The translations under genes and the position numbers were made by a program. Under the pieces are notes generated by a model. That model had not been told where the DNA came from. It searched no databases and saw only the letters and a program-made list of their open reading frames with translations. 64,000 nt of DNA, taken from contig CM119267.1 of assembly GCA_051294375.1 (NCBI GenBank), forward strand, positions 23,460,257 through 23,524,256. The letters run 5' to 3'. Source of the DNA: Paraspadella gotoi. Lineage: Eukaryota > Animalia > Chaetognatha. Below are positions 24,675 through 63,703 of the stretch, one piece after another (position 1 is the first letter of the stretch; each line of letters opens with the position of its first letter).

Positions 24675-24756
<82 letters not shown>

Positions 24757-26587: not shown

Positions 26588-26624
<37 letters not shown>

Positions 26625-27750
26625 CTCTCTTCTCCTCTCTCTCTCTCTCTCTCTCTCTCCTCCCTCTGCCCATCTCCGAATTTCCCCCTCCCTAATTAAA
26701 TTCTCTCCCGCACAAAGGATTTATAACCGCGCGAATTTTTCAATTCTTACCGCCATTTCTTCTCTTTTTATTTTCTAAAAGCGCGCCACGTTTTCGAGAA
26801 TTTTGTGTGCTTCAAACTCGTTGTGCTTGTTCAAAATTTTTTTTGCCGCCCACTTAAGAGCGATCGCTCGTCTTTTTGCGTCAATTCTTTACCCTTTTTG
26901 ATGTTAATGTTTTTTGCGCCTACTTTATATTTACGATTGCCCCGTCTCAAACTGAACGGCTTCCTACGTCATTTTTCAGGCTTATGAGTTTTATTTTTGA
27001 ATAATTAAATTGCCCGCAAAAAAATCCCTTTAAAAGTAAAAAAAAAAATTAAAATGAAATTAAATTTGAGGTGAAAAAAAAATTCCTTAATTTTTTTTCT
27101 AAATTTCATTAATGCTTTAGGTTCGCTTGTTTCGTTTTTCTCCTCTTCAGTGCTCCTGTCTAAAACAAAGAGGCATTTTAACTTTCGAAGCTCCACGCGT
27201 CAAACCGACTCGACTCGACCAGCGCCACCTGTCTCTCTTTCTCTTTCCGTACTCTCTGTTTTTTTCCATTTTTTCATGGTTTCTTTAAAGTACGGCGTTG
27301 AGCGGCGCGATTCGCGCCCGCGGTTTTGCGCTCTGTTTAAATTTTGGACACGATGAGACGTTAAACCGGAAATATCTTCGTCTTTAATTGCATCGAGAGT
27401 TAAGGTGATGGGACCTCTATTACTTTAATTTACAAACATTCTTTTCTGTGACTCTCCGTTTGGGATTTATTTTTTAAAATTTATTGATTTTGTATCATTC
27501 GATAATATTTTATTTATCTATTATCCATTTAGATAATCTATACTTTTATTTAATGTGTTTTTGTTTTGTATATTTGTTCTACTGAAAGGCAACCCACAAC
27601 CAACCAGCACCCCACACACAAAAAATCATGATTCTTTGACTTGTACTCTACTTCTTTCGAACGCTTCGTTCCCTCGATCCCTAGATCCCGTGCCCTCTCT
27701 CTATCTTCTCAGATTATCCCCCACTGCCCCTCTGGTTTCGGCAAGATTTC

Positions 27751-27794
<44 letters not shown>

Positions 27795-29791
27795 TCTCTC
27801 TCTCTCTCTCTTCTCTCTCTCCTCTCCTTCTCTCTCTCTTCCGCGGACTTCAATCCCGTGCGTCTCGACTCCGGATTAAAATAAAGCTCCAGATCGTCGA
27901 ACGCTCAACACTCTCTTTTTCCCTGGATTTTACACTCTCTTTTCAAGGATTTAACACTCTCGGTGCCAACGGCCTTTTACTCGCTCTGCGCCCTTCCTTG
28001 AATCGTTTAAACCTCTCTACGCCTAAGGATTTAATCAGTCTCTCTTTGGGTTTCAACTTCTCTCACATCTCACGAGTTTATTTGAGATTGTTTGATTGTT
28101 TAGATTTGTAGATTGTGATTTGTAGAATTTGCCTAGATTTATAGATCTTTTTAATTTTAAAATTTGCTAGATTTGGTAGGTTTTAGATTTTGCTAGATTT
28201 TGCATTGGTTTCCTCACTCTCGTTTTCTATATCCTGTAAATGTGCTTATAAATGGAATTGTTACTTAAGGACAAAGTTTAATTATTTTTAAAATCTCCTT
28301 TCTTCTCCCTCCCATACACATAACATATACATCTCTCCTCTTCTCTCCTCCCCTCGCCCGAAAATTCTTATCCATCTCCACCACCCGTTATTAACCAAAA
28401 AAAAAAAGTTTTTTCTAAAATCCCAGGCGGAGATCTCCTTCAAGGCGTGCCGAGAATTTCGTCCCTTTCGTCGGTTCTCTTCGACGTTCGTCGTGTCTTC
28501 CTTTCGACGTTCGTCGTTCTCCTTTCCACGTTCTCCCTTCGTCCCTTCCAATGCAGTCGCCTTTCTTTGTTCGTCGGTTGTTCATCATCGTCATTCATTT
28601 TACTCTTCTTTCTTTTTTTCTTTCTTTTGGAACTTTTGTTTTGTCTTGTCCTCCTCTCATCAACCTCGTCATCCCTTAATCTTCTCCTCTCCTTTTCTTC
28701 TTCCTCTTTTCTTCCTCTCCCTTTTCCCCTCCTATCTCCCTCCCCCTTCCTCTTCTTCCTCCTCTGTCTTCCCCCTCTTTGCGATCTCATATTTTCCTCT
28801 TCCCTGTCTCTTCCTCTTCGTTTTTTCTGGCCTTCTTCCTTCTCCCCTCGTCTCCCTTCCCTCTCTTCTTCCTCTTCCTGCTTTCCTTCGTCATCCCTCT
28901 CTCCGTTTCTCAGGTTTTCCGAACTTCGGTTTTCGGCTAAAGACCTCTTAAACTTTTTTAACACAACAACAGTAAAAAAACAACAACAACGGGAGACAAT
29001 CAACAACAACAACTTCTGCGTTCTTCTTAACGAAAAAACTTTCGGATTAAAACCGCCTTCACTTACTTCTCATAACTGATTCAACACTCAAAGTGGTGGA
29101 AAACAGCAAAGTAAAGCCTCTGAAAGTATCATGCGGTTACAATAAACTCTCAGCATAACGAATACTTAAACTAAAAACCGGATCCTGCCAAGTGGGGTCC
29201 GTGACCTGCCTGTAGCCAACTCAACAAAGTATTAGTTAAACTCCAGCAAAGTCTTCATCTTCATTCGACTCCTGTTGAAGTTTACTCCATCGGTCGCCTT
29301 GTTGGAACATCACCCCTTACCCCTCTTTTCTTTCTTCACCCCTACGACTAAACTTACCCCCTTTTTCGCGTTAATCGTCTTCAGTTCCGCAGCTTTAACT
29401 TTAACTTCAATCTCGACTTTTAAAATTCTTCTTCTCAAACGTTTTTTCAAGTTTAGTAATCGAAAAATTCCTCGATTTCGTTTTCTTCTCTGCTTGAAAA
29501 TGCCAAACCTTCAATCTCTTACATTTCCTCAAGAATCTCCTTCCCCCTGCCTTAATCTCTTTCCTTTCCCTTTCTCCTTTCTTCCTAAATCTCTTTCCCA
29601 TTCCTAAATCTCTTTTCTTACCTTATATCTCTTTCCTTTCCCCATCTCTTTCCTTCCTAAATCTCTTTTCCTTTGTAAATCTCTTTCCCCTTCCTAAATC
29701 TCTTTCCTTCCTAATCTCTTTCTTCCTAAATCTCCTTTCCCTTCCTAAATCTCTCTTTCCCTCCAAATGTCTCTCTCTCTGTCTTCCCTCT
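22778..29791 (+). repeat. Copy 1 of a ~6.5-7 kb near-tandem direct duplication
   Basis: Colinear with 32425-38920 from ATTTCCTTATAA..GGATTCGTTCTCACGATTCCTC to AAATGTCTCTCTCTCTGTCT. Differences are mostly small indels. Confidence 0.9.
23296..23715. repeat. ~14-bp minisatellite (GCCATTCCACCAAT-like); shorter copy at ~32950-33125
   Basis: Repeated ccattccaccaatg / ccattccacaaata units. Confidence 0.85.
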
Positions 29792-32387
29792 ACCGTAAAT
29801 AATGTACGAGAAATAATACATCTGCCCAAATTCATCACTTCGTTTCTAAACTCTCTAATACAGCTCTAATTATTACTCTACGTTATATATCACTTGTAAT
29901 CTACATGTCTCCTCATATAAAGAACTCTTCTTCTTACCACACCTCTTATTATTTACTGCAATATGATGCCTTTTTCACTAAATACGGTACATATTCTCTC
30001 TCTCTCTATATCGTTATTTCCTTTTCTCTTCCAAATCATTAGAACTTCTTGTCGTCGGTCAAAAATACTATAATATATTCACTTTTTAGTTCATTTACAA
30101 TCGTTTCTACTAACTCGATATTATAATCATCAATATTAACCACTTTCCTATATTTCTTATATTAAATGCATCTTTTCGCCCTTCATCTACGTCGCCCACC
30201 TCGAGTCTCCACTATCTCATATGCTCTCGACCCTGACTATAAGCATAGTACGCTATATGACAAAAATACTTGATGTTCAGAATATAACTCAGTGATGATA
30301 TCGCACAAGATGCAAGTCTCCATCATAGTACTCCCACCTATGCAGATTTAATCTCTCCTGCCTAAGTATCAATTATATCCCTGTTAATTCTCTCGCTCGA
30401 TCCAAATCCTCGTGTATATTCACTTATATTCTCCCGCTTTCTACGAGTGCGTCAGGATATTTGTTGTCTCACCAAACACCCCACATCCTCAGTACTATAT
30501 ATCCCTCTCTCATCACGCGCAGTCTCCGCTGAATCAACACGCTGCATCATCTCGATACTCACTGTATCCAGTTCCCTGCTCTTCTTCCGGACGCGCATAT
30601 GCGCGCATCTTAATACTCGGTCACGCACTGCCGTGATCCTCTCTTCTTGCTTGCGAGACGCAAGACAACTCTGTGCTTCTTTCGTAGAGCGGGCCTCATG
30701 CAGGGTTCGATCTCAGGACCTCGGTCGAAATGACTCTCTCGCTCACAGACGTCCTACACAGTATTAGGCTCTTTTATTATCAATTCAAAGAGTGTGATGG
30801 CATATATTCTGGTACTTTCCTCTCTTATGTCCCAATTAAACTGTCTCTCTCTCCAATGATCTGAATGGAACCAGCACTCCCACTGCTGGAAGCCTCGGGA
30901 GACCGGAGCTGTCCCAATACTGCGATATCTTCAATCTAAAACTGATTTGGCTTTTTCCACAAACTCTCCCTTCCAGATTCGAAATGTGGGGAGAGAAAAT
31001 CTCTTAGTCATTACAATGGCAATCCAGATACACTAATGCATCATCTGTAAGAAATCCGTCCAATCTCCAAAAATCCTACATTCCAACACCTCATGATCTG
31101 ACATGAACAGATAAGGCGACTCCCTTCTTCTGATGAGAAGTTGCAGTCCATTTGTTCTCTCCTTGTCGTGTTGAAAACCAGCTTCCTTTCGGATACGACC
31201 TGTCTCATTTCTTCTCTTGTTCTTGAAACTATCTCAATCAATCCTCTCTAATCTAACAGGTCACGCATTGTCCTTCCATCTGAGCTCTTGGCCTTACCAA
31301 GAAGCACCCCTAGGCTTTGCTGCTGGATCTTATCTCTCCATGATGTTCTCTACCCAGAACAAATCCTTTCTTTCGGCAATAGTGCGCAAACCTCTAGCAT
31401 TACCACTACTTTCATATGGGAATGATTTTCACGCGGAGTGTATCCACAGTGAGGACAGAAAAAGCAAAAAAAAAATTTTTTAGAGATAAATATCGAGACA
31501 AAGTAAAATGATGTGAATTTATTTTAGCATAACATCGAGCGAATAAAAAAACGACTTTTTATGAACTACCTTTGATTCCAAATGATCTGAAGGAAGTGAA
31601 AGGGAATGGAATTTAGGCGAGAATTCCATTATTGACATTTTTGCAATTTACTGAATTCTTTCCCAGCAATCTCACTCGGCTATGCTACTAAATTTCAAAA
31701 ACAAAATACATATTTCATAAATGATACATATATCAATTCTCTCATTGATAAAGAAATACACAAATCAGTTTTGAATGTTTTAATTAATGTGGAAATAAAA
31801 AATGATTAAAGCAGTAATTTGACGATTAAGGAAAATGATCGCACTATTGCGTCTTTTTTTTTTTCGGTCGACACAGTTGTGAATCACCCTTCACTCACCT
31901 TCTTCTTGAAGACATTATAAGTGTTGTTGTGTTGTCTCGTTAATCTTATAAAAACTGATAATGACCTCATGATGATTAGCCATAGAACCAATCAACGCCA
32001 TGAACATAACTATTCTTCACTCCACCTAGACCCCCTAAGAGCCTACAAACCAGCGCTTAATTCCTTCATCTAAAGTAGTATTCGCCTTCGAAGCATGAAC
32101 AACTTCACCATTCTCTTCCTTGATACTCTCAGTTCATCTGTGTTTTCAAGCACAGTTCCCTTGCTTAGCTGGGCACGTTTCCTCACTGTGGCTCTCCCAA
32201 CTTCTATCAGTCAGTCTATTGTACTTTTTATATCAGCAGCGTAACTTCAGCTGTAACCTCATGGGCAACAATGCCTTACACGTTGATCAAAAAATACATT
32301 CTCAAAATTCGAGTACTCATGGTTCAACCCATATTCCTCGACCAGTTTTAATACCTGCCACTTTAAGCAGAGCCAGGATTCCAAGGC

Positions 32388-38920
<6,533 letters not shown>

Positions 38921-39376
38921 CCAATGTTCTCTCCCATTCTCCTTCGTTTCTAAATCTCTTTCCGCCTAAAATCTCTTTTATACTTGAATACCTTTTCTCT
39001 TAAGATCTCTTTTAAACTTAAATATCTATCCTTTTCAAATCTCTTTCTTCCTTTCATTTTCTCTCTCCAAAATCTTATTCTTTCTCTCAAAAAATCTTTT
39101 TTCCTTTAATTTTCACTTTCCCGATTAAATCATAAATCCCTTTTCCCCCTAAATCTCTTTCCCCCTTCAATAATACCTTCCCCCTGATTCCATATCTCAT
39201 CCCGACAAACTTACTTTGAAATCTCCATCGAATCCGGATCATGCAGCAGCCTATAAACCCCCTGAGAAATTCCTCCCTGAAATACATTTACTTACCCTCA
39301 ACAAACCGGAATCGACTTTCCCGCGTGAGTCAGAATTGTTAGTCCAAACACCCCCTCTATCCCTCCTCTCCCCCAG

Positions 39377-42347: not shown

Positions 42348-44138
42348 AGGAGAAGAGAGAGAGAAGAGAGAGAGAAAAGAGTTCATAACCGCATAAACTG
42401 TTTTTTGTATGACAGTAAAAGTTCGAGCCGATCTTCATCCAAGATAGCTCGAATGCTTTCAAATTTATTAAGCAAATACGTAATAGTACTTCAATAGTAA
42501 ACAATCTTTACAAGTCTCCGCAACGTTCCTAATCAACTTCAGAACTCATCACAACTGACCACAACTTTACACTGAATGCAATGAATCGAGTGACTACAGT
42601 GACCAGTGATGAGGCCAAGCTGGCGATTTAATAATTCATCACTCGGTTATACGCAAAAGAAGAGCTGGAATCGATCCCGGCACGAAAAATCAAGAATCTT
42701 GTTCGAGGCGACCGCAGGGCCCCCACTGCGATAAGATTCATTAACATTTGGGTCGTCGTCGTCGTTGTCATTTTTCGATCCAAAACTGGAATTTTCTTTT
42801 CCAAATTTCAAAGTCGTAACTGTATTTTTAAAATTTAATTTTATCCAAAGACCTACATTTATATATATATATAATTATATCTTATATAGTATATACTCTA
42901 TACTACTTAGACGCTGGAATTAACTCGAGTTTTAACTTGAATTAACTGATATGTTGAGATTTCGAAATGAAATAATGCGCTTTAAATTAGCAAATTAAGC
43001 CTGACCAAATATCTATTATATAATTAAATTGCGCATTCAGTAGAATTTGTGTCGATAAAAACATTTTGTGACAAATTAAATCGACAACTTCAATCACCAG
43101 GTGCAATTTATTAACAGCTGATTTTAAATAACAAATTCAAAAAAAAATCCTCACCCGGCGTAAATGTATATTTGTATAACTATAAGCGATAATAATCTTA
43201 AAACCGCGATGAGATGCAAACAAATGATATGCAAGAGACGATAAACGACGAATTAATCAACAAGTGATAGAACCCCATGATAAATTATGACATAACCGGC
43301 GAGAAAAACCGGCGCCGTGAAGCCTCCTATCGGCGGAGAAACGAAATGCGAGAAGAAATGAAGTCGATGAAGAGGAAATAAATGAAACGCGCTAGTTTTA
43401 ATGAAGCGGAATGAAGGGGGGGGAGAAGCGATCGAAGCGGAAAATGAAGCGAATCAAAGGGGGGGGGTGGAGGGGGGGAGGGGAGAAGAAGAGGGGGGAG
43501 GGGGGGGAGTGGGGGGCGAGAAATTGACGATTAGGAAAAAGAGTTTAACGTGCACCAATGAGAAGAAAAAAAATAACAATGTGTATTTTTATAATGCGTT
43601 TCTCAAATAATAATTATCGTAAAATTAATATTTTTTATTCAGGTATTGATTGCTAATTTGACGCTCCATATTATTCAAGTTATTATTTAAGCTATTATGG
43701 TGGACTAAAATCCACCATACTATGTACATGATTTAAAATTATTTATTATTATTTAAGATTTGCGCAACAGAAATCATGATATAAAAAATATCGTCGCACC
43801 ATAATTAAACTAAGTTTAAACAACAAAACAAAAGAAATTTAGTATTATGCGAAAAAAATTATGATTATTGTAAAATAAATTTTTATTATTCATTTATTGA
43901 TTAAAAATATTACGCTCTAAATAATTTAAATTTTAAGCAACAATTTGAGCAATGTAATTTGATTTACCTTCAGCCGTTTATAATTTATAATTTGAGCTTG
44001 GCTACAAAAATCAAAATTTTGTCGCACCATTCGTCTATAGATACGTATAGAAAGAAAATTAGAAAAATTAAAAGAAATTTATCGTTAACTGACTAAAACC
44101 AAATAAAACCAAATCTATATATATCTATGATTAAAAAT

Positions 44139-46441
44139 TCAAACGCTTAACTCCTCAAACATATTTCCAAAATAATCATCCATTTGATCCGATTCAGCCT
44201 TCTCTTCTTCAAAGTCTTTCGGATCTATTTTTATCCAAAATGAATGAATATCATCCGTAAATTCAAGCTCCAGTTTACATCGAGTGGAGACGATCTGCTC
44301 TTCCAGCGTTTTGTCAGGATCCAGAAAATATTGATCCGAAAATTTTTTCAACCTCAAGAATTTCACGTTTGCGACGACATCGATGGGAAGTTGGTCGACT
44401 ATTTTCAGGATAAGGTCCTTGACTGTCGAGCTTCTAGTCATTTTTAATCTGATCTCGGGGTTCTCTGCAACACCAATTATGGTGATAATTTTCTTATGGG
44501 AGATGTCCCTAGAGTCTTTCAATTCTTCTGGAGCTGTGCAACCCTTATTGTCAACCTCAACCCAAAAAGAATCTATGTCATCCCTATATTCCATAACTAA
44601 CTTGCAACTATTGTTGACGTTTTGCTCATTCAGACTCTGTTGAGGGTCCAGCAAACAATGACCTTGCAATGTTTTCAATCTTAAAAACATCATCTTTTTA
44701 ACAAAATTCTCTGGGAGATGACTCACTGCTTTTCTCATAAGATCTTCAATTGTTGAGCTACCTATGGCTTCCAACTCAAGCTTTGGTGTCTGCTTAATAC
44801 TCATTATTGAAAATGTAATGTCATCAACTGTTTTAGCAGTGATAGTTTCATTATCTGAGATAAACTGATCATTATGCAGTTTATTCCCTTCACTATCATA
44901 AATGAAATAATCTATTTTCGTTTTTGAGTAGATATGGTTTTTTAAAGCATTGACTTGAATAAGAGCCAAGACTGCATGTTGCTTTATTTGACATTCCTCA
45001 ATTTTCAGATCTTCGCCTGATGATTCAGGTTCAATTTGAACCGATACAACATTATATTTCTGTAATGGTAAAATCTTAAATGTGTCGTCGTTCATGCACC
45101 TTTCCTCCAGTCTTTGTTGCACTTCTCCAAAGATATCTAGTGTATCAGTCAAAACTTGATCAAACCACAGATCGTGACAGTCAAGCCAAGGAAATATTTT
45201 GTTAAGGTGCTGATGAATATCAACTTCCGTTGGATACAGCTTGCCGATCACTTTTTCAATTCCTTTCTGGTGCATCGCGTGTGTGCTGATGTTTCTCAAA
45301 AGACGACGAAGATCCGAAGCTATGATTATAACATATCCATTTGAATTTCCTTTCTCTCCCCTTAAGTATGAATAAAATTCCCTGGGAAGATGTTTCAACC
45401 AGTTTCCTTTAGATCCTATGACCAAAGCAGAATTTTTGTTGTACTTTTCTAAAAGAATTTGATTTACTTGGTTGTTCTCCACGACTGCAGATTTTATATT
45501 TTTGAAGAACTGATTAACCCGGTTCGCTCTTCCAACACTGATGGAAGGAACTTTAAAGATGAAATGCTCCAAGCATTTTCCCGCTGTGGGCCTTTTTGAC
45601 GCAACTGGGTAAGTCATGGCCATTACTAAATTTGCAATACCAATTTTGGCCTCGTATGGAGAAACAAAAAAAGACTTTAAACAGATTTTGTCGCTCAAAA
45701 TATTTTGGATTACCATATGGGATGGTTCAACTGCTCCTAAAAAAGGATGTTTTCCTATTAACAACTCCCCTAGTGTACATCCTAGCGCAAATACATCTGA
45801 AGCGTGATGTTGTTTTGGTGTCAATTTTACTTTAGATTCGTCCTCGGCTTTTAACATTTCGGGCGATCTGTAACATTTATGCCCCTGAATGGCAGTAGTG
45901 TCTGCTTTAAACATATCCATCTCTTTGCTGACCCCAAAATCACCAAGTTTTCCTGAAATTAAACCATCTCTTTGGTTTATCTTGATAAAACAGTTGTCCG
46001 GTTTAATGTCTCTGTGAACAATTGGCCGTTCTCCTGTACGCAGGTAATCCAAACCTGTTAAGAAATCTTTTGCAAGATCTAAAAATTGTTTTTCTCTTTG
46101 GTGAGGATCACCCGGTAACGTAAATCCATTAATAACGTCACGCAAAATAGCATCACATTTTTCCATCAGGAGATAACCACTCGGCGGTCGACTTGGTCCC
46201 TCTTCCATTGCTTCCCCCAAAAAATGAATAAGATTCGGATGCCTATCAAAACGCCTAATTATCTCGCACTGAATATTAAATTGCATTTTTTTAAAATTAT
46301 TTGTTAATGTCAAAATCTTTATCGCCACCCTGTTTGGCTCTCCGTATAGTTCGCCCTCATAAACGACAGGATTGTCATGAGTTTTATCTAAAGGCGCTTT
46401 ATAATCAATACTAAAGAGTTGTCCACTAGATGTGACTGTAC
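44139..46441 (-). CDS. Terminal exon: Ser/Thr kinase domain, KEN (IRE1/RNase L-type) ribonuclease domain, and C-terminal ubiquitin-like repeats
   Basis: Kinase motifs VYEG, VAIK, QCEI (helix-C Glu), HPNL, HRDIKPDN, GDFG, YRSPEML, SDVFALG, GKHPF, KRPTA..CLEHFIF. Then W..HL...F..YL...Y....SDLRRLLRNISTH...HLNKIFPWL, matching KEN motifs (IRE1 DLLRAMRNKKHH/YFTSRFPHL; RNase L DLLKFIRNLGEH/YFQKTFPDL). Two ~90-aa internal repeats follow (SST.xDL...FLRLK...LDP..xL.EQ...CKL..E..DDI.SFW). Confidence 0.92.
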
Positions 46442-48083
46442 CTAGATTTGAGAAAAAAAATATTACTTAATTCTTTGGAAATAGTAGATGTGAATTCTCA
46501 AAACATAAACCGAAAAGTATAACTGTTGCGCCACAGTTAGCGGTAGCCGACCAAATTCAAATTTTAATGGTTGAGATTGAGTGACAGATCGACCGACCGA
46601 CCCAAAAGTGAAAGTTTTTATCAGTGGGCCACAAGCTTCGGATTGGGTGTGGCAATGCCAAAATTATTTTAATGATCAAAATTAATTTTTATTATTCATT
46701 ATCTTTAGAAATATATCTTGAGGCAAAATGGTATTAGTTCACAACGAATTTTATTTTTCATAGAAAACGTACATGTTTCGGCTTTGGATGCAAGCCTTCT
46801 TCAGCGTCAAATGAAGAAGGCTTGCATCCAAAGCCGAAACATGTACGTTTTCTATGAAAAATAAAATTCGTTGTGAACTAAAACCATTTTGCCTTAATAC
46901 ATATAACAACGAAAAAAGAAAGGTTATTACCACTAAGAAATATATCTTAAACTAAGTTTCACTCGCTCGTCCATACTTTAACCGTCCATCTTTAACTTAC
47001 CCGTTTTGATTGGATCTCCGTCGATCTGTTGTATCTTGAGATATTCCAAATATTTTCTGCATTCTTGCAGCACGTCATCGTTTAAATCAAGGAACATACA
47101 TTTACAAATATCTACTAGTTCGTCAAAGAACTGGTTGAATTCAGCTTCGTTAAGATCCTTTTCAATTCTAATTACTTTATTTCTCATTTCTGTCAAACGT
47201 CTCTTTTCATTTCCTTTTTTTGGCGCAAGTTTTAGAACTATATAACCAAAAAACGGAATATCAATATCTCCAAAAATTGGCACTTGTCTTTCTTCGTATT
47301 CGTCTTTAGCTTTGGAACGAAAAAAACTATAATTTTTCAAAAATTCATAATTCTCTGAACTCCATCGCAACCAAAGTTCGTTATCAAACTCTTTTCCATA
47401 TTTTTTCTCCAAGAGAATCTTTACCAATTTCTTTAACATATAAACTCCGCCATCTTGAATCGCGATAATGATCCTGAATAGTCGATACTGACTTAAGTTT
47501 AAAAATCTAAGAAATAGATTTTATTATTTAGTAATTCAAACCTTTTATTTTTTTAAGTAATATATTAATTTTACTCACCCTTTTCGGTTTCATCCAAAGG
47601 CTCATCCTTTAGTCTTTGAAAGTAAGTGAGCCATTTATCTCTTTGGACAGAGTCATAAATTAATTCTTTAACAATGCCTAATATCTTCTCAATTAAAGTT
47701 TCAAGTTTCTCATTGCTGATTTCAATGTCTGTCGAATGGGCAAACTCGTTGCGTATTTTATAGATACGATTGATAAAATTATATTTATCGAAAATACGTT
47801 TAGATAAATGATTGAGGAAACTTATATCGATCCTTTCTAAAACGGGAATCTCTTTATCCATATGAGTGAGTTTTTCTGTCTCCTTAAAATATTTACATTT
47901 CTTTACGAAGTCGTAATTCTCGACGCACCATTCCTTCCACATCTCATCCTCATATTCCCGCCCACAATTCTTAGCCAAAGTCTCTTTGACCAACTCCATC
48001 AACAGGACGCGCAACTGTTTCACCGCGATGGTCCATCGGAAATATCGTTTTCGACCCTCAGTGTAAATTTTCTGGCGCGGCAT
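44139..48083 (-). CDS. Spliced gene (~1105 aa): HEPN-like x2, IRE1/RNase L-like protein kinase, KEN ribonuclease, tandem ubiquitin-like repeats; no signal peptide or transmembrane segment
   Basis: ATG at 48083. Exons are ~48083-47575/47579, 47506-47001 and 46441-44139 (TGA). Intron 2 is clean: GTAAGT donor at 47000, ttttctcaaatctAG acceptor at 46442, phase 1, giving ...KTG-TVTSSGQLFSIDYKAPLDKTHDNPVVYEGELYGEPNRVAIK. Intron 1 phase is ambiguous by 1 nt (see findings). Confidence 0.8.
46720..46935. mobile_element. Palindromic Penelope-like element remnant (inverted partial pLTR) with 13-bp target-site duplication, in intron 2 of the kinase-KEN gene
   Basis: 83-bp inverted arms at 46721-46803 and 46812-46894 (one mismatch) around an 8-nt loop. 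Direct repeat AGAAATATATCTT at 46707-46719 and 46936-46948. A hammerhead core is followed by AATAAA, as in PLE pLTRs. Confidence 0.7.
46766..46808 (-). ncRNA. Minimal type-I hammerhead ribozyme
   Basis: Minus strand reads GACG-CUGAAGA-A-GGCUU-gcaucca-AAGCC-GAA-ACAUGU-A/CGUU: conserved core, 5-bp stem II, palindromic ACAUGU helix III, GUA cleavage triplet (cut between 46770 and 46769), and stem I GACG:CGUU. Confidence 0.75.
47001..47506 (-). CDS. Internal exon: second, degenerate HEPN-like repeat
   Basis: Acceptor tatttcttAG at 47508-47507 and donor GTAAGT at 47000. The open frame FLNLSQYRLFRIIIAIQDGGVYMLKKLVK...DIDIPFF...EMRNKVIR aligns by eye along its length with exon 1. Confidence 0.8.
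47575..48083 (-). CDS. First coding exon: DZIP3/hRUL138-like HEPN domain with intact Rx4H motif
   Basis: 170-aa helical ORF with RYFRW, IDISFL and KIRNEFAH (RNEFAH at 47753-47736), followed by EISNEKLETLIEKI. This is the motif order typical of animal DZIP3-like HEPN domains. A donor GTGAGT lies at 47578. Confidence 0.75.
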
Positions 48084-49120
48084 CCTGGCGTTGGAATTAT
48101 GAAATTCGTACTATTAGTATAGTATATTATATTACTATAAGAATAAACTTTTTTCTTATGTATCTGTGGATAGATCTCGGAGTATTTCTGAGTAAAATAT
48201 CGATTTAATTGTGCACAGGAAATTATTGGTATTAACAGCAAGGCGTTCGTAGGCCGATTTAGAAAATTTAAACGAAAGCTTAATTATCTTGATTTCTGCA
48301 GCTGTTGTTTTATTCGTCACTTGGAAACGATCGAGACTTTGATTCTTTTTTTTTCTTTCTTGCGAAAGATTTTTTTTTTTATGAAAGACAACAATTTAAA
48401 TATTCTTTCGAATGAAAGGGTAATGTAATTGTAAGTTGGTTATATACAGAGACAGAGACAAAGAAATTTATATTGAGATAGTAGATATCAGATATATACA
48501 TATATACACAGCAGATTTTAGACGCCGAAAGCATTTAATTAAGTTTAATTGAATTAAAGGGGAGATGCTGATGAACAAAATTTGATTTCGAGAGCGAACC
48601 ACGTTTTTATTCCCCACAGCCTCGAAACGAATTTTCGATAAAAATAGAAGTTAGTCGGACAAAAGGTCAAACCGAAATCAATCCCGAATTCCCGATACGT
48701 AATATGAAATTAAAAAGGCTCGTTGACGTTTTTGTCTTTTTGATTTGTCTTTTTTTTTATTTTGTTGTCATGTTAATGTACATTTAGAAAATAATGCTCA
48801 AACTTTAATCGTTGAAGTTTCTCTAATGAGAGGAGATTTTTGAATAAGTTAAAAAGGGAAAACTGAGCTTTACTTTAATCCATTTTTGGTATTAGTTATT
48901 GTGTTAAAGTATTTTTTTTTCAAAAATGTTCTGAACAATTCTGATCAATCATAACATGTCAGAATTTTTTTTTTTATTTTAAGTTTTTTAATTTATTTTT
49001 GATAAAGCTATTATTACTGTGTTTTATTACCAAAATTAGCAAAAACAGTTAAAATCATTGATGATAATGAATGATGATATTTTTAAGGTTTTTCTCAATT
49101 TTGACCTATTTATCATCAAT

Positions 49121-49248
49121 ATGAAATTGGTACAACCAATATAAAAATTATCCATTCATTTAATAAATAAGCTATCTTGCCCCTGACTTTGGACAGGCTT
49201 TGGTGGTTTAAGGCCTCCATCACTCTTACAAGATAATGACATAGCAGG
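49121..49248 (+). repeat. Dispersed repeat; inverted copy at ~63502-63627, fragments at ~50662-50702 and ~60552-60605
   Basis: CCCCTGACTTTGGACAGGCTTTGGTGGTTTAAGGCCTCCATCACT..ACAAGATAATGACATAGCA matches the reverse complement of 63502-63627. Confidence 0.8.
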
Positions 49249-49697
49249 TCACTGCAAGCTTTCAATCAAGACTCTCTCACAGTCGTTTATTCACTCCCAG
49301 AGTACCTCTGGCTTCCCTATCAATGAAGTGGTATAATATTTCATATATTCATATATTATAAAAAGAATTATACTTTTATAAGCTATCAGAATCTGCTTTT
49401 AAAAGTACAGAATTAAAAAAAATTCAAAAAAGTTCCTATCTATACATAAATATTAAAAATTAATGATAGTGCTTTGAGCCAATTTAGAAAATTGTGTTCC
49501 ATTGGAAGTTTTCTCAGAAATGTATTAAGTTTCATTGGGGAAGGTTCCTAAATCAAATTTCCGACCCGCCTCATTGACATAGATTGGTCCTATTTACGTT
49601 TCTTAAAGTTTTTAACTTTTGTGGTCCGACTGATTGTTTCTAATTCTATCATTCACGGAATGAATGAAAACGAGGGAGAACACTCCCGAAATGGCGG

Positions 49698-49748
<51 letters not shown>

Positions 49749-50069
49749 TCAACAAAATGGGCGTCGCGATATGAGAGGACGAATTAAGGGAAGAAGATTG
49801 GAATTTCGCAAAGTCGATGAGTTGAATCAAAATCTTTCGACGCCAAAATCGCTAATCTGAATAACGCAGTTTAATATAATGTAATATAATATAACGCAGT
49901 TTAATATAATGTAATATAATATACCGCATTATAACGATTAAGAATCACAACTTCACAATTTCACAACTTCACAACAATAACATTGTCAACGATTTTGTTT
50001 GAGGCTTTAGTTGATTGATTTGCAGCCTCATCTGTTGGCCGAGAGCGAGAGAGAGAGAGAAAGAGAGAG

Positions 50070-50102
<33 letters not shown>

Positions 50103-53066
50103 CAGCATTTTTCTGGGTGTTGCCTCATGTTGGATGACCTTCTGACTTAATCTTCATCAAGACGACGACTTCAAAGACTCGAACTCAGTTAATTCTCCTC
50201 CTCCTCTTTCTCCTCCTCCTCCTCGTCCTCTTGATATCTTCTTCCTCCTTCTTCTTTATCTCTTTCCTCCTTTTACTTTCTCCTTCTCTTATTTCTCTTT
50301 TTCTCATTCATCTTCCTCCCTTCTTACAACCTCGCCCCCTTAATCCTCCTCCTCCTCCTCCTCCTCCTCCTCCTCCTCCATGAATGCCAAGTCGATTATC
50401 CTCCCCTTTTTTTCCCTAAGATCAAAGAGGAGACGAAAGTCGGCGCCTCAGAGGCTCAACACTCAACAGGCTCGTCGACGTAGTCGTCTTCGTCATCGTC
50501 ATCATCGTGGTCTTTGTCGGCGACCTCTTTTATTTCCTCGTCGTTGTCCTCGTCGTCGTCGTCGTCGTCATTGTTTTAGTCGTCGCCTATTTTGTCGTCG
50601 GCATCATCAGTAGCGTCGTTGTTGTTGTTGTTGATTATGCACTTAATTAATTGACTTTGACTCTGACTTTGGACGGGCTACGGTAAATTGAGGCCTCCAT
50701 CCCAACCCTAAGAAAATTAAAAATTCAGTTATTTTTTTACCCTCACCGACCCAAAGCTCTGTACGACATTTTCCCAAGACCAATCGGGATTTTAGCGATG
50801 ACTTCGAAAAAAGTTTTAAGGTGATATTGAATCATAGTATCTGTGTTGGGCCGCGCGGTTCCCCTTCGCGTGGATTGGCCTCGACCAATCACCGTCGAAA
50901 GATTCGGAGAAAGAATTTGTTCCTTTTTTTTTTCCGCGCAATTCAAGCGAAGGAATCAGGGGAAAGCGTTGGTCCTTGATTTATTGAAGCACGATTGATT
51001 TTGCCAGGCGACGGCCAACCGTTTTGAAAAACCAGCGGAGTTATGTATATCAATGACTATTCTGTAGTTGATATGTCTCCTTTGTGCTGCTACAATCCGT
51101 TATTTCTACCGACTCTTGCAGCCATAGAATAGAGTCTTGGGCTGAAGAATATCTACTGTCGTTTCGATGGTCGTCTTTACGCTTCCCATGCCGGCTGTAG
51201 TAATATTTTTGTTTAACATAAAGGGAATAACTATTATGCTTTACGGAATCTCTTTCAGTATGAAATATGTTATAAAATATTATCGCGAGACCTACCGACA
51301 AGAAACTCTTCTTTAAGATGTGCAACGACGCATCGAAAAAGAAGAAAAAAGATCCAAACATTTGCCAGTTTTTACGCTCGGCATTACTTTCCGTTTTTTT
51401 GAAGGGGGAGAAAGAGAGAGAGAGAGAGAGGGAGAGAGAGAGGGAGAGAGTCCAACATAGAGAGAGAGAAAAAAAGCCACGAGGGACAAAGGAAGTGTGT
51501 TTAAACAAATCTATGACCGGCCAATTTTTTGCTACCCCAAGATATATTTAAAAAAAGTCATTTCTTTATTCACAACATGGTGATAATAAGTCTTATCTTA
51601 AGTAACACCTGTAAATGTAATTATTAAAAAAAAAAATTAAAATTAAGATTTTTTTGCATTTTTAAAATTTTAATCTCGTCTGTTGGCAAAGACGCGAAAG
51701 GGAATCATTTTTTGGAAAAGAAAAATGAAATTTTCTTTTATTTCATCACGTTACTTTTTTTATTCTTCCAATTATTATATATTATATTATATATATTATC
51801 TTATATATATTATATAATATCGTTAAAGGGCCTTGTATGTTTTCATAGGAAAAAATTGCAAGATTGATTAAATTTGATTAAATTTAAAAATAAAAGTAAA
51901 ATTTACTATATTAGATTTCGTTATATTCTTTATATAATGTATATTATTTTATAATGTAATGCGAAGAGGAATGTTAGTGTTGTCTTCTGGAAATAGAGGG
52001 AGTCTCTCTCTCTCTCTCACTCATTATCACTAACGTTTGATATGATTTCGATTTTACTGTCATACTCGCCGCCGTTACCTTCAGTCTTCGTAATTGTCGC
52101 TGTCGTCGTCATCATCGTCTTTTGAGTCATCTTTATATTTGAAAATATTTTTCGCGGTTTTGCACTTTCGAGTTTCGATCTTTGCGGTCGAAACTCACGA
52201 ATTTACGATTTTCGATCGAGAAATGCGGGCGAAGAAATCCACGGAAAAGCTTTTCTTGTGGCGAGAGTAATACATAACCCTCGCAGATGGCCTCCAGTGT
52301 AGCCCGCGCTCAATCAAATCCTAAGGATCTTGGTTCGCAGCCCTGTTGAGTCGTTCTAGAACAAAGTTACGCCAGTGTCACATACTTGGGATCGTCTAAT
52401 ATACTATTTAACAAAATCTGACTCAATTATTATAACAAAAACTAATAAATTGAATACTCCATTTCGTTTGCGCTTTATTTATATTCCTAATGTTTCAGTT
52501 TTAATATTCATTTACAAAAGTTTAATCTATTCCCTAACCCTAACATTTTTTTTAATCTTAAACCTTAAACCCTAAATCCTAAACCCTAAACCCTAACCAA
52601 AACTCTAATTAAATCCCTCGCCCTAATTCCTTATCTACTCCTCATCCTTTACATTTATCCCTTAACTTAATTATTAATTTAATTAATATAAGTTAAAATA
52701 AAGCGATTTCTGAAAAGAAGGCCCCATACTCTCCAATAACTGAGAAATACCCTGGTAACTCTGCCGAACACCCCTTCAGCAACTGCAGCCTGCAGTCCTT
52801 GCTACTCACTCGGGTTGTTCGGAATACTTGTAACAAACGTTTGCTGCAGGTGGCGAAGAGTTTGGCAATGAAGTCGGTGATAAAATGGCGTCGAAGATGG
52901 GACCGAGAGGAAAAAATGGGCGTGGCGAATCGGCGGGAAAGAGTGGCGGGAAAAGTGGCCATAATCTTGATCACTTTTTCGCCTCTAAGTGAAGCCATTG
53001 ACCCGAAGGAGAAAAAGAAAAAAAAAGCGTCTCTCTCTCTCTGTCCTTTCTTTTTGTACCCCTTTT

Positions 53067-54126: not shown

Positions 54127-54823
54127 TGACTTAATTTGTTTACCATCGAAGGAAAACCAAAAACAAACAAGAGTCCACACGATTTGGCCAAAGACAAAAA
54201 AGAGAAAAAAAGAAAGAAAAAGAAAGATATAAAAGCAGTGAATTTTCTTGTTAACCTTTCCATGTTTTTGATTCTTAAATGAACCTACACTCTTTCTTTA
54301 CGCTTTTCGTCAAAATCTATTTCTAACTCAATTATCGTTGAATATATATATATAGACACATTAGACAATGCTAGTTTTGGTAAAACCGTTTCTGCTTTCT
54401 ATCCTTTCACAACTTATTACTGCTTTAAAAACAACAAAAGATAGGCTTGCCAACGAATTGTATTTATTTACATTTAAAGATTATTTTATTAACCGAAATC
54501 TAAAACATAACGATCGACTTTGCAAAATAGGGCTTCTCCATACCATACTCCATTACTGATGACAAAAATTCTTCAAGACTTTTGTTTTTCGAAGTACTTC
54601 ATTCTTTCGTTAGAGGTCGCCTATGCCAGAGGGAACTTCTTGAAAACAAAAGTCTACGCTGCTCGAATATAGACCGATTAAACCGATAGACGATTTTATA
54701 AAACTGGAAAACAGTCAGCTACGCTTTAAAAAAGAAAAATATTTTTATTTCAAGAATTACGAAAGAAAATACATTTAATTTCAAATAAAATTCCGATCAA
54801 GATATCCTCCAATATCATCGAAG

Positions 54824-55811
54824 TTAAAACTTTTGGAAAATCCAGTTGGGCAAATTTTTATGAATCTCGTTCATCTTCGGAACGACGTCCTCCAACCCGT
54901 TACAGTCGTTCTCCAAACACGCGCACTTCACGGACGGGACTTTGGTCAGATCGACGGCGGGAACGCCTCCCTTCACCGAGCCATCTTTGACGACGCCGGC
55001 CGTGGCCGTCCGAACGTCCAGCTGGTATCCGCTGCTGCGACGTCCAAGCGACAAAAGGCTCGAGGCTTCGTCGTCGTTGTTGTCGTCGTTAAGTCGTCGC
55101 CAAAGTCGGCGAGACGCTTCATTCTCTTTGACGAAAGAGTTTCGGATTTCTCGAAGTCGGCGACGGATTTGCTGGGGGGGGGAAGGAGGGGGGAGATGGG
55201 GGGGGGGAAGAGGGTGGGAAGAGAAAACGTAGAAAGAGAAGAGATATTGGAAGAATTAAAATGGAAAGGAGAAAAGAAAGGAATAAAGGAAAGAAAGGAG
55301 AAAAGGGGAAAGGAAAAAAAAAAAAAGGAAGGTAGGATTTTAGACAAATTTTCAAGTCGTGGAAAAAGAAAAGGATATTTTATCAGAAGGAAAAATAAAA
55401 ATAGAAATTTCCATAATTGATTTGTTTCTGAGACTTTCCTTTTGCTTAATCTCTTCCGAACTTACCTCTCTACCAACTTCTCTCCGGACAAACTTACCTC
55501 CCGCAAGACTGCAGATAATAAGTGTTGTTGTCCCTCAAGTTCGGGTCCACGCCCGCGAAAAAGACTTGAACGGTGCAAAAGTCGCAGGGTTGACCTCGAC
55601 CACCCTTGCTCCTCTGATCAGGAGTCTCGGGCTTTGTCTTCCTCATCGTCTCGTAGCACTCGACGGCGTCCGGCGCCCCGTTGGGCAGCTGCGGACGGAA
55701 GCTGCCCGTCGAGTCGCAGCAGGAGAGGCCAGTCGCGACAGCAGCTGCGGAAGAAGAGGAGGAGGAGGAGCCGGAAGTGGCGAGGAGGAAGAGGAAGAGG
55801 AAAGAAAACAT
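54824..55811 (-). CDS. Single-domain secreted three-finger-like protein, paralog of the 56-58 kb gene; 2 exons; apparent frameshift in exon 2
   Basis: Signal peptide MFSFLFLFLLATSG. Exon 55811-55498 ends at a GTAAGT donor; exon 2 starts at 55171 after a cccccAG acceptor. Cys pattern LSCC..EC..PCDFC..SC..FC..KCACLENDCN; the last part lies in a shifted frame (ORF 54824-55054). Confidence 0.65.
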
Positions 55812-56265
55812 GGCCGCCTTGTTTTCGTTTAGTTTTTTTGTTGTTTTATTTTGTGTTTTGTTTTTTCTGCGGTGGAAAGAAAAGCAGGAGAAGTGCACAT
55901 TAATAATACGATACAATTTAGATAAAGCATTGAAAAAGTTCAAATAGAAACCCGGAAGCTAAATATTTTTTAAATAATATTTAATATCAAAACTGGTAGC
56001 CATTATTCACCCTCGCCACAAAGACAAACAGACATAAACAAAATTTGAAATAAAAACCGAGATTCTAATTTTTATTCTGACGTATCGAGTAAAATAGTTT
56101 ATTAGTATTGTATGGTTAAATTCGTGGTTCTGTTTAAAATTTTATAAAAAATAAAGCTTTCAACATATTCTTACATCCTGTTTTTTTAAAACAATTTCTT
56201 TTCATCAAATACAGACAAATGTCGCAGAGACAGCGGCGACCAAAAGGGCGAAACGTTCCGCCTTT

Positions 56266-56476
56266 TTAAACGAGAACAAGGGCGAAGACAACGGCGATCG
56301 TCGCCGACATCGCCGTCGTCATCGTCGTCGCGTCGTTCGTCGTAGTCGTCGTCGTCCTCGCCGCCGTCGTCGTCGGTTTCGGCGCCATCGTTGTCGGCTT
56401 CTTTTTAGTCGTCGTCGTCGTCTTCGTCTTATCAGTTGATGTCGTCTTCAATGTCTTCGTCGTCGTTCCCGTCGGT

Positions 56477-56517
<41 letters not shown>

Positions 56518-56755
56518 TGGTGGAAGCAGCTTCTTCGTCTTCCATTTGATGTCCAGCTTGGCGAAGGACACCCATTGGTTGCACCTGTCCGCGTTGCATT
56601 TGCACCTGACGTAAGGCGCCCGATCATCTCGGACGAAGAGGGCGCAGGTGTTCATGTCGACGTCGTTGTCTTTGGCGTTGTAGGCGTCGGCGAGCTTAGG
56701 AGGCTTTGTAGGGGAAGTTGTGTCGCATATCTGTGGAGAGAGGAGAGAGAGAGAG

Positions 56756-56854
<99 letters not shown>

Positions 56855-57469
56855 AGTTAAAAATGACTCATGACTGTCGAGAAAAGCCAAGCTCCACATC
56901 CCCAGTCCTCCCCCGCCCCCCCTTATTTCCAAAACTCAAAAGAGCATCCCGTCACCTGAGTGAACTTCATGTTGGTCACATCGAAAACGAGGCTGCAGGA
57001 GGAGCATTAGATTCGTTCTTTTCGCATTTGTTTGCTGCGAATTCGTCGACGGATGTTGAGCTGCAGCAACTTTCGATCTTCAGGTTGGAGGCTCTGGAAA
57101 TTGGAAATTGAAGTTGTGTTGCATACATCGAGTAGTCGATGTGGAAGACTATGCCGAGAGCAGTTGGTGCTGATTCTCGGTCGATTAGCGGGGTATTAAA
57201 TATTAACGCTATATTGACTATAATGACTTACACCGGCATCGTCCACCGATAACTCTTGGACGGAATCACGTTGTTTTGATTCAAGCCCCAATTGCAGAAA
57301 TCCTCCTTGCAGGCGCAACGAACGCTCCACTCGCTCGATTCGTCGGGATCCACAGATTTGGGATCCTTGTGTGGATCGAGGACCGGAGAGCCGGACCCGG
57401 CTACGGCCTTGTGTTGTGGGGTTAGGGGGAGTGAGAGAGAGTGGGGGAGACGAAGAGGAGAGAAGAGAG

Positions 57470-57513
<44 letters not shown>

Positions 57514-58104
57514 CTCTCTCCTCTCTTTTCTCTCTCTCTTCCTATCAAAAACCTACCTGTAAATAGCAGGAATTATAACCGAAGGGGCGTGGATTATTTT
57601 GGTCGATTTTCCCGCAGCCTTGAACGAACGTTTTCTTTTTTATGTTGTAGTCGACGAAACAGTATTGACAGCGGTTTTCTGGCACTCTGATCGGAATAGG
57701 ATAAGTTATACAATATTCATTTTCGTAAATACAAACTTACGCTAAAAAAATGATATATATATTAAATCGAAAAGCCTAATTGATTTAATAATACTTTTTT
57801 TTGGAGATGTGAATTTGTCATAGATATTCCAGTAATTTGCAATGTTTTATAATATCCTTTTCAAATTAATTTTTATTTGATTAAAAGTCAAAGGTTAGTA
57901 TTAAAGCAAAAACCCTAACAGCAACTAAAACAACAACAGCATGAAAGCTCCTTACTCGAGGTATGATATCTGATAATAACAATCGCTCAAAGGAATCGTT
58001 TTCATATTTTCCGATTTGCAGCAAGACAAAATGCGGTCGGTCGTCGTCGAAGGAATGACGATTAAAGACGCCATCGTCAAAAACGACGCAAAGCGAAGAT
58101 TCAT
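56266..58104 (-). CDS. Two-domain three-finger (Ly6/uPAR/quiver-like) protein with signal peptide, Thr-rich stalk and GPI-type hydrophobic tail; 5 exons; apparent 1-nt frameshift in exon 4
   Basis: Exons 58104-57956, 57686-57557, 57407-57232, 57093-56956 and 56730-56266 have GT-AG ends and compatible phases. Domain 1: SCC..C..CQYC..GC..SC..CACKEDFCN. Domain 2: SCC..KC..CSSC..IC..TC..CKCNADRCN. C-terminus TTT...MSATIAVVFALVLV*. One base is needed near 57007-57010 to keep frame. Confidence 0.75.
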
Positions 58105-62891: not shown

Positions 62892-63703
62892 TATAACGAC
62901 ATTATCAATAATAATCTTCTTCATCATCGTATTATCAAGCAGGCACCAAATAATTTCATAAAAATAGTTACATGCGATGGATTATTAAAATAATATATTA
63001 AATGTGCATTAATTCGATATCAGCTATATAATTATTAACACCTCAATAAATAATTAAATAATAAAATGTTAAAGAAACCACATTATATCAAAATTATAAT
63101 AGTTTCTAAGTAATTAACTCAACATTGTCATTGATAGGCGTCAATTTCAGGAGAAATAAGAGACTTTCAACTCTCATTTAAAAAAAAAAAATTGGGTAAA
63201 ATTTAAGATAATCTAAACAAACAAACAGAAATAATACATGAGCTTCCAAACTCCAAGTAGCGAGGCGATGTATCCGGCTGAATTTTATTCAGTTCATTGT
63301 TTGAATTATCAACTGTCATTGACATCAAATGAATTCATACATTTTAAATAAAAGTCGGTCGGATAGATCAATTATCTTTTTTTAAAGCTGAAGTTCGTTG
63401 TGCTCCACATGTTTTTGAGATTAACAAAAAAAAAGACAGGTAATCTGGAAGTGAATAAACGAGACGGTGAGAGAGAGCCTTGATTGAAAGTTTGTAAGGG
63501 CCTTGCTATGTCATTATCTTGTTAAAGTGACGGAGGCCTTAAACCACCAAAGCCTGCCCAAAGTCAGGGGAAAGATTATTTATTGAATGAATAGCTAATT
63601 TTTATATTTTGATTGTACCAATTTCATAACTAAATTTAAATTTAAATATAATAAAATAGTCAATTTAACAACGCCAAATTTTTTAGTTTTTTCTTTTTCC
63701 TCG

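Follow-up and report, generated by a model that had tools for sequence, protein, structure and literature searches.

Here, we describe a gene of the chaetognath Paraspadella gotoi whose predicted product joins a pair of HEPN domains to an IRE1-type kinase, a KEN ribonuclease (RNase) domain, and a tail containing probable ubiquitin-like repeats. The gene lies on the minus strand of a 64,000-nucleotide (nt) stretch of contig CM119267.1 (assembly GCA_051294375.1, positions 23,460,257 to 23,524,256), which we call the window and whose coordinates are used throughout. The gene is real and transcribed; its architecture is known from one locus and one sequencing run. The HEPN pair differs strongly between the window and its transcripts, and almost every scored codon difference in it changes an amino acid. 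The rest of the protein appears constrained. This excess of amino acid changes, confined to the HEPN pair, is an arms-race pattern. The explanation we favor, to which we give about an even chance, is that the protein is a cytosolic innate-immune RNase in which the HEPN pair faces a pathogen and gates dimerization of the KEN domain.

Gene structure and transcripts

The gene has three exons, with its ATG at 48083 and its stop at 44139, and the exon lengths yield a product of about 1,104 amino acids. An earlier note, made from the sequence alone, had pointed out the motifs RNEFAH, DLRRLLRNISTH, and HLNKIFPWL, and all three are indeed present in a set of three long minus-strand open reading frames (47571-48110, 46978-47520, and 44139-46466). 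The parts of the gene up to the KEN domain, and its 3′ end, are as follows.

48171..48335, minus: short contig 5′ of the ATG, possibly 5′ untranslated region; no join to exon 1
47579..48083, minus: exon 1, with the ATG and HEPN1 (DZIP3/CXorf38-like); the 889-nt contig covers 47578-48053
47736..47753, minus: Rx4H motif of HEPN1, RNEFAH (R111, N112, H116); R, N, and H are the same in the divergent transcript version
47507..47578, minus: intron 1, 72 nt with GT..AG ends; its splicing in the window shifts the frame by one base, and transcripts have an extra G at the donor
47001..47506, minus: exon 2, with HEPN2, which duplicates HEPN1 but lacks the catalytic His; the gene varies most here
47167..47184, minus: degenerate HEPN2 motif RNKVIR, in place of RNEFAH
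46442..47000, minus: intron 2, GT..AG, phase 1; absent from the 3021-nt contig
45561..46364, minus: IRE1-type protein kinase in exon 3; VAIK, HRDIKPDN, DFG, and SPE kept; no glycine in the glycine loop; alphaC Glu replaced by Gln
45150..45551, minus: KEN (Ribonuc_2-5A) RNase domain in exon 3; Y369, R382, N383, and H387; RNISTH at 45279-45296
43553..44138, minus: 3′ untranslated region, within the 3021-nt contig

Transcript evidence comes from contigs of one run, X1. None of the runs is recorded as RNA; since both introns are missing from its contigs, we treat X1 as RNA. No part of the gene was found in runs X2 and X3, and the locus is covered by X1 only. Specifically, an 889-nt contig crosses intron 1, joining 48053-47578 to 47506-47100; a 416-nt contig corresponds to 47100-47507 and ends in eight exon-1 letters; and a 3021-nt contig runs from 47129 through the spliced intron 2 to 43553. 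Two different 5′ versions therefore meet one 3′ contig within exon 2, with an overlap of 30 bases. That the HEPN and kinase-KEN exons share one message is strongly implied, with the full span distributed over more than a single record. Alternative first exons for the two 5′ versions are ruled out, because the versions merge inside exon 2 rather than at its edge. No paralogue of the gene occurs elsewhere within the window.

The earlier note had posited one spliced reading frame. The transcripts bear this out, since X1 contigs span both introns in frame, whereas the window's own intron 1 departs from it: the best GT-AG pair (47578/47507) is out of frame and leads to a stop after 170 amino acids. 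A weaker donor at 47574 gives an in-frame product of 1,105 amino acids from the window sequence itself. Both 5′ transcript versions carry one more G at the intron-1 junction than does the window splice, which puts them in frame. The base missing from the window falls within a G run, and the window is a gappy, microsatellite-rich draft (4,189 N). Either the assembly slipped by one base here, or the window carries a null allele.

The HEPN pair

Membership in the HEPN superfamily is recognized by a profile match together with an Rx4-6H motif, and HEPN1 has both. Exon 1 matches the Pfam family HEPN_RiboL-PSP (28.8 bits against a cut-off of 28.4; E 1.4e-6), with further matches below cut-off to DUF4559 (23.1 bits against 27), HEPN_Swt1, Csm6 HEPN, and HEPN_Apea. 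In the Atlas, HEPN1 has a similarity of 0.95-0.96 to DUF4559/HEPN_DZIP3 clusters, with 199-208 features in common, although these families are assigned to only 11-38% of the cluster members; the clusters near HEPN1 are 89-100% eukaryote, Mollusca being commonest. Thus, the suggestion that the domain is DZIP3-like finds support in its Atlas neighbors but not in Pfam, where exon 1 has no HEPN_DZIP3 match and DUF4559 falls short of its cut-off.

Exon 2 is a duplicate of exon 1 (35% identity over 82 amino acids, E 1e-16) and has no HEPN profile match of its own in Pfam. Its RNKVIR lacks the catalytic His and does not satisfy Rx4-6H, and HEPN2 is likely an inactive HEPN copy. The tandem helical repeats seen in the earlier note can accordingly be kept as a HEPN domain and its duplicate, of which HEPN1 alone has Rx4H. 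Sequence searches of the PDB with HEPN1 or with the pair returned nothing significant, NCBIfam matched none of the three exons, PADLOC gave two weak matches, both to HEPN1, and HEPN1 had no phage match. The HEPN fold works as a dimer. HEPN domains of the DZIP3 and CXorf38 families occur in animal immune proteins fused to NACHT, DEATH, CARD, and dsRBD domains (PMC3710099; PMC13012124), and HEPN_DZIP3-NACHT fusions are among those reported (PMC13012124).

Variation is concentrated in the HEPN pair

Variation was scored by comparing contigs of X1, one run of one study, with the window. The 889-nt contig differs from the window at 26 of 476 bases in exon 1, plus a 6-base insertion, and at 49 of 407 bases in exon 2. 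The 416-nt contig shows 14 differences in 408 bases. Over exon 3 and the untranslated region, the 3021-nt contig shows 10 in 2,881. Put together, 75 of 883 bases differ in the HEPN exons versus 10 of 2881 in exon 3 and the untranslated region.

Codon effects were taken from listed sites (24 of 26 in exon 1, 40 of 49 in exon 2, 8 of 10 in exon 3), the listing being by support and place and not by effect. The 64 HEPN sites amount to 51 codons, a codon with several hits being counted once, as changing. At these sites, the HEPN pair has 49 amino-acid-changing to 2 silent codons, and the kinase-KEN-tail exon has 3 to 5; by exon, the ratios are 19 : 1, 30 : 1, and 3 : 5. Rough pN/pS values (changing and silent differences per site) are 0.049/0.011 in exon 1, 0.133/0.020 in exon 2, and 0.0016/0.0107 in exon 3. 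The HEPN excess of changes is significant against the neutral silent share (binomial P 0.0024) and between regions (Fisher P 0.0002). Residues 41-80 of HEPN2 hold 17 of its 30 changes. R111, N112, and H116 of HEPN1 are unchanged, and both catalytic motifs are untouched. Whether the contigs represent alleles or recent paralogues, the HEPN pair is apparently under positive selection and the kinase-KEN-tail exon constrained.

These counts bear on one alternative, that the gene is a young chimera in decay. In this scenario, a HEPN gene became fused to a kinase-KEN gene, its HEPN part is under relaxed selection, and the window frameshift is a true null allele. The strong splice pair of the window, with its stop after 170 amino acids, fits such a history, as do the failure to find a relative with the full architecture and the loss of two kinase motifs. 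But the reading frame is open in both transcript versions, no stop has arisen at any of the 51 changed codons, and the listed insertions are only of 6 and 3 bases. Moreover, relaxed selection predicts about 9 silent codons among the 51, and 2 are observed, while the supposed null allele is a base missing from a G run in a gappy draft. We regard decay as quite improbable.

The kinase and KEN domains

K41, Y369, R382, N383, H387, and the domain residue ranges are given in exon-3 numbering. The kinase domain (Pkinase, E 1.6e-29) is followed directly by the KEN domain, the arrangement that characterizes the IRE1/RNase L superfamily. Ribonuc_2-5A scores 21.5 bits from the whole of exon 3 and 25.4 bits with KEN scanned alone, the cut-off being 23.3. 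In the PDB, only three sequences match with E < 1e-15, all of them yeast IRE1, and the alignment spans residues 23-417; a search with KEN alone returned nothing significant. The KEN catalytic set, Tyr...Arg-Asn-x3-His, in which the Tyr too has a catalytic role, is kept as Y369, R382, N383, and H387. RNISTH aligns to RNKYHH of yeast, with the Tyr upstream at the same 13-residue spacing. In yeast IRE1, H1061 is the hydrolytic residue (PMC8104961), and roles for the Arg and the next polar residue are given in PMC3710099.

The kinase is less well preserved. K41, HRD, and DFG are kept, but the glycine loop has no glycine, and Gln occupies the alphaC Glu column. Of the 19 other rows with a letter in that column, 18 have Glu. 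The Lys-Glu salt bridge corresponds to K599-E612 in PMC4536996. Because the loop glycines and the alphaC Glu are lost, the domain may be a weak kinase or a pseudokinase. The kinase motif set, called full earlier, is thus incomplete at these two places.

A fold model of exon 3, built on an alignment of 26 sequences that includes IRE1s, is confident to about residue 455 (pLDDT about 70-95 over 1-450). It matches human IRE1 with Z 34.1 and a root-mean-square deviation of 3.4 A over 387 residues, and IRE1 chains with a TM-score of about 0.8 of target. IRE1 chains reach Z 30-34 in the first 28 rows; kinase-only chains reach at most 29.8. A single-sequence fold of exon 3 was poor (pLDDT 34), with no Foldseek match at E < 0.001. 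Together with the Pfam score of the isolated domain, the IRE1-like fold of the predicted model backs the earlier assignment of the post-kinase region to KEN. The absence of transmembrane (TM) helices and ankyrin repeats also held. Specifically, the best 19-residue hydropathies are 0.95, 1.38, and 1.24 for exons 1, 2, and 3, with no TM-like stretch, versus 2.5-3.2 in six TM-bearing IRE1s, and no exon has an ankyrin match in a library that shows clear ones in the kinase-KEN relative P0084.

Since fold and sequence are nearest to IRE1, the protein could act in stress or RNA turnover and have no part in immunity. It would then be a lineage-specific offshoot of IRE1, performing decay like the regulated IRE1-dependent decay of RNA, and possibly tethered to a membrane through an upstream exon. 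Room for such an exon exists just 5′ of the ATG, where 48054-48170 has no contig coverage and is joined by no contig, and AG acceptors stand at 48111 and 48085. However, an in-frame stop lies 10 codons 5′ of the ATG, the contig at 48171-48335 is directly upstream, and no luminal-like frame occurs within 5 kb upstream (stop-to-stop; the longest has 165 amino acids and is partly simple repeat). Nor does a housekeeping role predict a ratio of 49 : 2. We consider an upstream exon of this kind unlikely and the alternative as a whole improbable.

Relatives of the protein

A HMMER scan of 1.84 billion representatives gave 4 matches with E < 1e-30, one of which is a 15-stretch repeat artefact. The nearest relative, P0001 (534 amino acids), consists of kinase-KEN plus the first tail domain, domain A; it is 33% identical over 515 columns and carries the motif RNVIQH. 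In a tree of 26 rows, with long branches and a midpoint root, the protein clusters with P0001, P0002, P0004, and P0009 (99/95), apart from the TM-bearing IRE1s. This grouping sets the protein outside the TM-bearing IRE1s; because it branches away from them, the protein is, on these sequences, not the organism's ordinary IRE1.

Pfam scans of 26 of 150 listed relatives found Ribonuc_2-5A in 16, one of them also with ankyrin repeats, and a HEPN family in none of the 26; a HEPN-pair profile run against 158 proteins found nothing with E < 0.01. Among the KEN-bearing relatives, 6 have a TM-like stretch and the rest do not, including two Orchesella cincta proteins, although several may be partial. 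By sequence, then, TM-less kinase-KEN proteins recur, and the whole HEPN-kinase-KEN architecture is seen once. P0002 and P0151, of the same clade, have a Cys-x2-Cys motif just N-terminal of the kinase, hinting at other N-terminal modules. Further, separate groups of TM-less kinase-KEN-like proteins are P0014/P0063/P0069/P0081/P0096, P0043/P0067, and P0084; one such group has RD for RN in its KEN motif, one a long C-terminal extension, and one ankyrin repeats.

Other searches gave negatives of limited reach. Word-based protein searches, which are weak negatives, returned 0 of 6,562 candidates for exon-3 residues 280-766, 0 of 6,726 for residues 20-440 at E 1e-20, and 0 of 320 for HEPN1 among longer proteins. 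A metagenome scan (1/64 parts) yielded 79 loci that match the generic kinase core only, none of them matching the HEPN-pair or tail-repeat profiles. A full-text literature search, with most subscription papers outside its reach, found no description of a HEPN-kinase-KEN protein. Table 1 of PMC3710099 tabulates KEN fusions with kinase, ankyrin, CCCH, UBI, and BRCT, and none there with a DZIP3/CXorf38 HEPN. The HEPN pair in front of a soluble kinase-KEN was thus not found described, but the earlier proposal of a third kinase-KEN architecture is weakened: public data already contain TM-less kinase-KEN proteins, among them one with ankyrin repeats and two of a springtail (O. cincta), and KEN-ubiquitin fusions appear in Table 1 of PMC3710099.

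The C-terminal tail

Three domains follow KEN in exon 3.

44820..45074, minus: domain A, also present in the nearest relative P0001 (26% identity)
44553..44828, minus: repeat B, probable ubiquitin-like beta-grasp fold
44226..44501, minus: repeat C, probable ubiquitin-like beta-grasp fold

Repeats B and C, 92 residues each and 38% identical, are probable ubiquitin-like beta-grasp domains. Four ubiquitin-fold Pfam families match them, all below cut-off (best E 1.1e-4), with a p47 match at E 1.3 and Atlas ubiquitin clusters at 0.85. There is also a fold match to the MCU N-terminal domain, a beta-grasp-like fold, at Z 5.8-6.0, although the model behind it is of low confidence; residues 456-766, the tail, have pLDDT < 50 in the alignment-based model and are unreliable there. 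Exon 3 contains no di-glycine, and PDB sequence searches with repeats B and C or domain A returned nothing significant. Of the two or three ubiquitin-like repeats first suggested, two thus have sub-threshold support, made up of several weak leads that fall short of proof; a third is rejected for now (hhalign probability 0.1).

A candidate immune RNase

In IRE1 and RNase L, an N-terminal module drives kinase-KEN dimerization, which forms the RNase site (kinase-KEN dimer mechanism, PMC4536996 and PMC8104961). RNase L in particular is described as a pseudokinase-KEN protein in which the N-terminal module drives dimer formation (PMC4536996). Here, the sensor position N-terminal of kinase-KEN is occupied by the HEPN pair, the sole hypervariable part of the protein. 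We propose that the fast-evolving pair recognizes something made by a pathogen and brings two kinase-KEN units together, whereupon the dimerized KEN site would cut RNA broadly, in the fashion of RNase L. The HEPN pair would thus stand in for the luminal domain of IRE1 and the ankyrin repeats of RNase L, the degenerate kinase would serve mainly as a nucleotide-bound dimer scaffold, and the beta-grasp repeats would attach the protein to partners. HEPN1 may provide a further cutting site, while HEPN2, without its His, would bind rather than cut.

The same features can be ordered differently, with HEPN1 as the main RNase of a double-effector protein, switched on when the kinase-KEN scaffold or the tail oligomerizes, and with the HEPN changes reflecting escape from pathogen inhibitors or a shift in RNA targets rather than the sensing of a ligand. 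RNEFAH is kept, its R, N, and H are the same in the divergent version, and a main-RNase role has already been proposed for HEPN_DZIP3-NACHT receptors; CXorf38 and DZIP3 HEPNs are mostly motif-intact and N-terminal in immune architectures (PMC3710099). On the other hand, variation is strongest in HEPN2, the copy without the His (30 changing to 1 silent), and KEN has an intact site in a constrained exon (3 : 5) and so is not a relic. We judge this arrangement unlikely, though likelier than decay or a housekeeping role. An immune role of one kind or the other, with either the HEPN pair as sensor or HEPN1 as effector, is probable. For the immune suggestion of the earlier note, the excess of amino acid changes confined to the HEPN pair is new evidence, drawn from one run and an incomplete variant list.

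Several points weigh against the HEPN pair as a pathogen-facing gate. In known animal proteins, HEPNs of this kind are regarded as effectors, not sensors. The fast HEPN change could equally be escape from a pathogen inhibitor, and the 889-nt contig may stem from a paralogue and not from another allele. Should every one of the 11 unlisted HEPN sites prove silent, the excess would disappear (P 0.76, Fisher 0.11). At the strong donor, the window's own gene copy is frameshifted. The fold model was built on an alignment already containing IRE1 sequences, the nearest relative P0001 starts at the kinase, and protein and metagenome searches yielded no other protein with the whole architecture.

A more specific form of the immune-sensor explanation, which we put forward tentatively and believe somewhat less probable than its general form, is that the protein is a 2′,5′-oligoadenylate (2-5A)-independent RNase L analogue. 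The duplicated HEPN would be its sensor, one copy cutting and the other presenting a hypervariable surface, for pathogen binding or as a decoy, by which KEN dimerization is triggered. If so, a single chain would combine a sensor with two HEPN nuclease centers of unrelated lineage, and kinase-KEN would prove to be an immune effector that invertebrates can reuse with new sensors. To our knowledge, IRE1 and RNase L are the only characterized kinase-KEN enzymes, and little is known about how infected invertebrates shut down RNA by means other than the 2-5A/RNase L route. The gene supplies a single-chain candidate with point-mutable sites (H116 and H387) and natural diverged sensor versions. It further suggests that a nuclease domain of the HEPN type can be given a new use in recognition, as a binding surface, and it draws attention to a little-studied set of TM-less kinase-KEN proteins in invertebrate data.

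Other features of the window

Intron 2 contains one further element.

46711..46904, strand not assigned: palindromic high-copy element, resembling a miniature inverted-repeat transposable element by shape; 194 nt, with 93-nt arms that are 96% complementary; summed contig depth 566-699 versus about 16 in exon

Contigs join parts of the left side of intron 2, near 46562-46570, to 48877-48890, which suggests that the intron and the upstream region share a second repeat family. About 1 kb upstream of the ATG lies a very high-copy repeat (49120-49307), whose summed depth reaches 92,570; an inverted copy with 85% similarity sits at 63438-63628, near the window end. Carriage of the gene in a transposon was considered, and no long terminal repeats flank it in 42500-50000. 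Rfam has no match in 42500-50500.

Farther away, at 54800-57600 on the minus strand, several exons carry the motifs CACLENDCN, CKCNADRCN, and CACKEDFCN, with a Thr-rich, hydrophobic C-terminus. Their only Pfam match is a weak one to DUF5354 (E 0.024); they look like a cluster of small surface proteins of the three-finger/Ly6 type. In the open reading frame list, low-complexity stretches at about 23300-30000 recur in near-duplicate form at about 33000-39000. Either a segment of about 9-10 kb has been duplicated in tandem, or the assembly has introduced the duplication.

Comparison with known systems

The protein shares with IRE1 (yeast Ire1 and human IRE1alpha/ERN1) a sequence match over both kinase and KEN domains, a fold match at Z 34, and the spacing of the Y, R, N, and H residues. 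It differs from IRE1 in that its three exons encode no signal peptide, luminal domain, or TM helix, in having the HEPN pair in front and the beta-grasp-like tail behind, and in a kinase that has lost the glycine loop and the alphaC Glu. It also sits outside the TM-bearing IRE1 clade. Thus, none of the traits of IRE1 proper, namely a luminal/TM part, an intact kinase, and grouping with TM-bearing IRE1s, is found in it.

Other TM-less invertebrate kinase-KEN proteins (O. cincta ODM88445.1 and ODM90435.1, the ankyrin-kinase-KEN protein P0084, and P0001) likewise have no TM helix; no HEPN match turned up among the 26 relatives scanned with Pfam or the 158 proteins searched with the pair profile, and many are short and may be partial. 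With DZIP3/hRUL138 and CXorf38 (DUF4559), including the HEPN_DZIP3-NACHT receptors, the likeness is to HEPN1, which resembles these families and keeps Rx4H. Their fusions listed in Table 1 of PMC3710099 are, in contrast, to TPR, RING, ankyrin, CARD, NACHT, DEATH, LRR, and dsRBD, and not to kinase-KEN, and in our protein the HEPN is duplicated, with one copy lacking the His.

Like RNase L, the protein is predicted to be soluble, to consist of an N-terminal module, an impaired kinase, and KEN, and to act as a probably dimer-activated defense RNase. Unlike RNase L, it has no ankyrin repeats, hence no 2-5A pocket of the known kind; its kinase keeps HRD and DFG (and the Lys); and it bears extra C-terminal repeats. 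No RNase L chain is among the PDB sequence and fold matches listed. The protein therefore falls outside RNase L for want of ankyrins and outside IRE1 for want of a luminal/TM part, yet on the favored explanation it would work as RNase L does.

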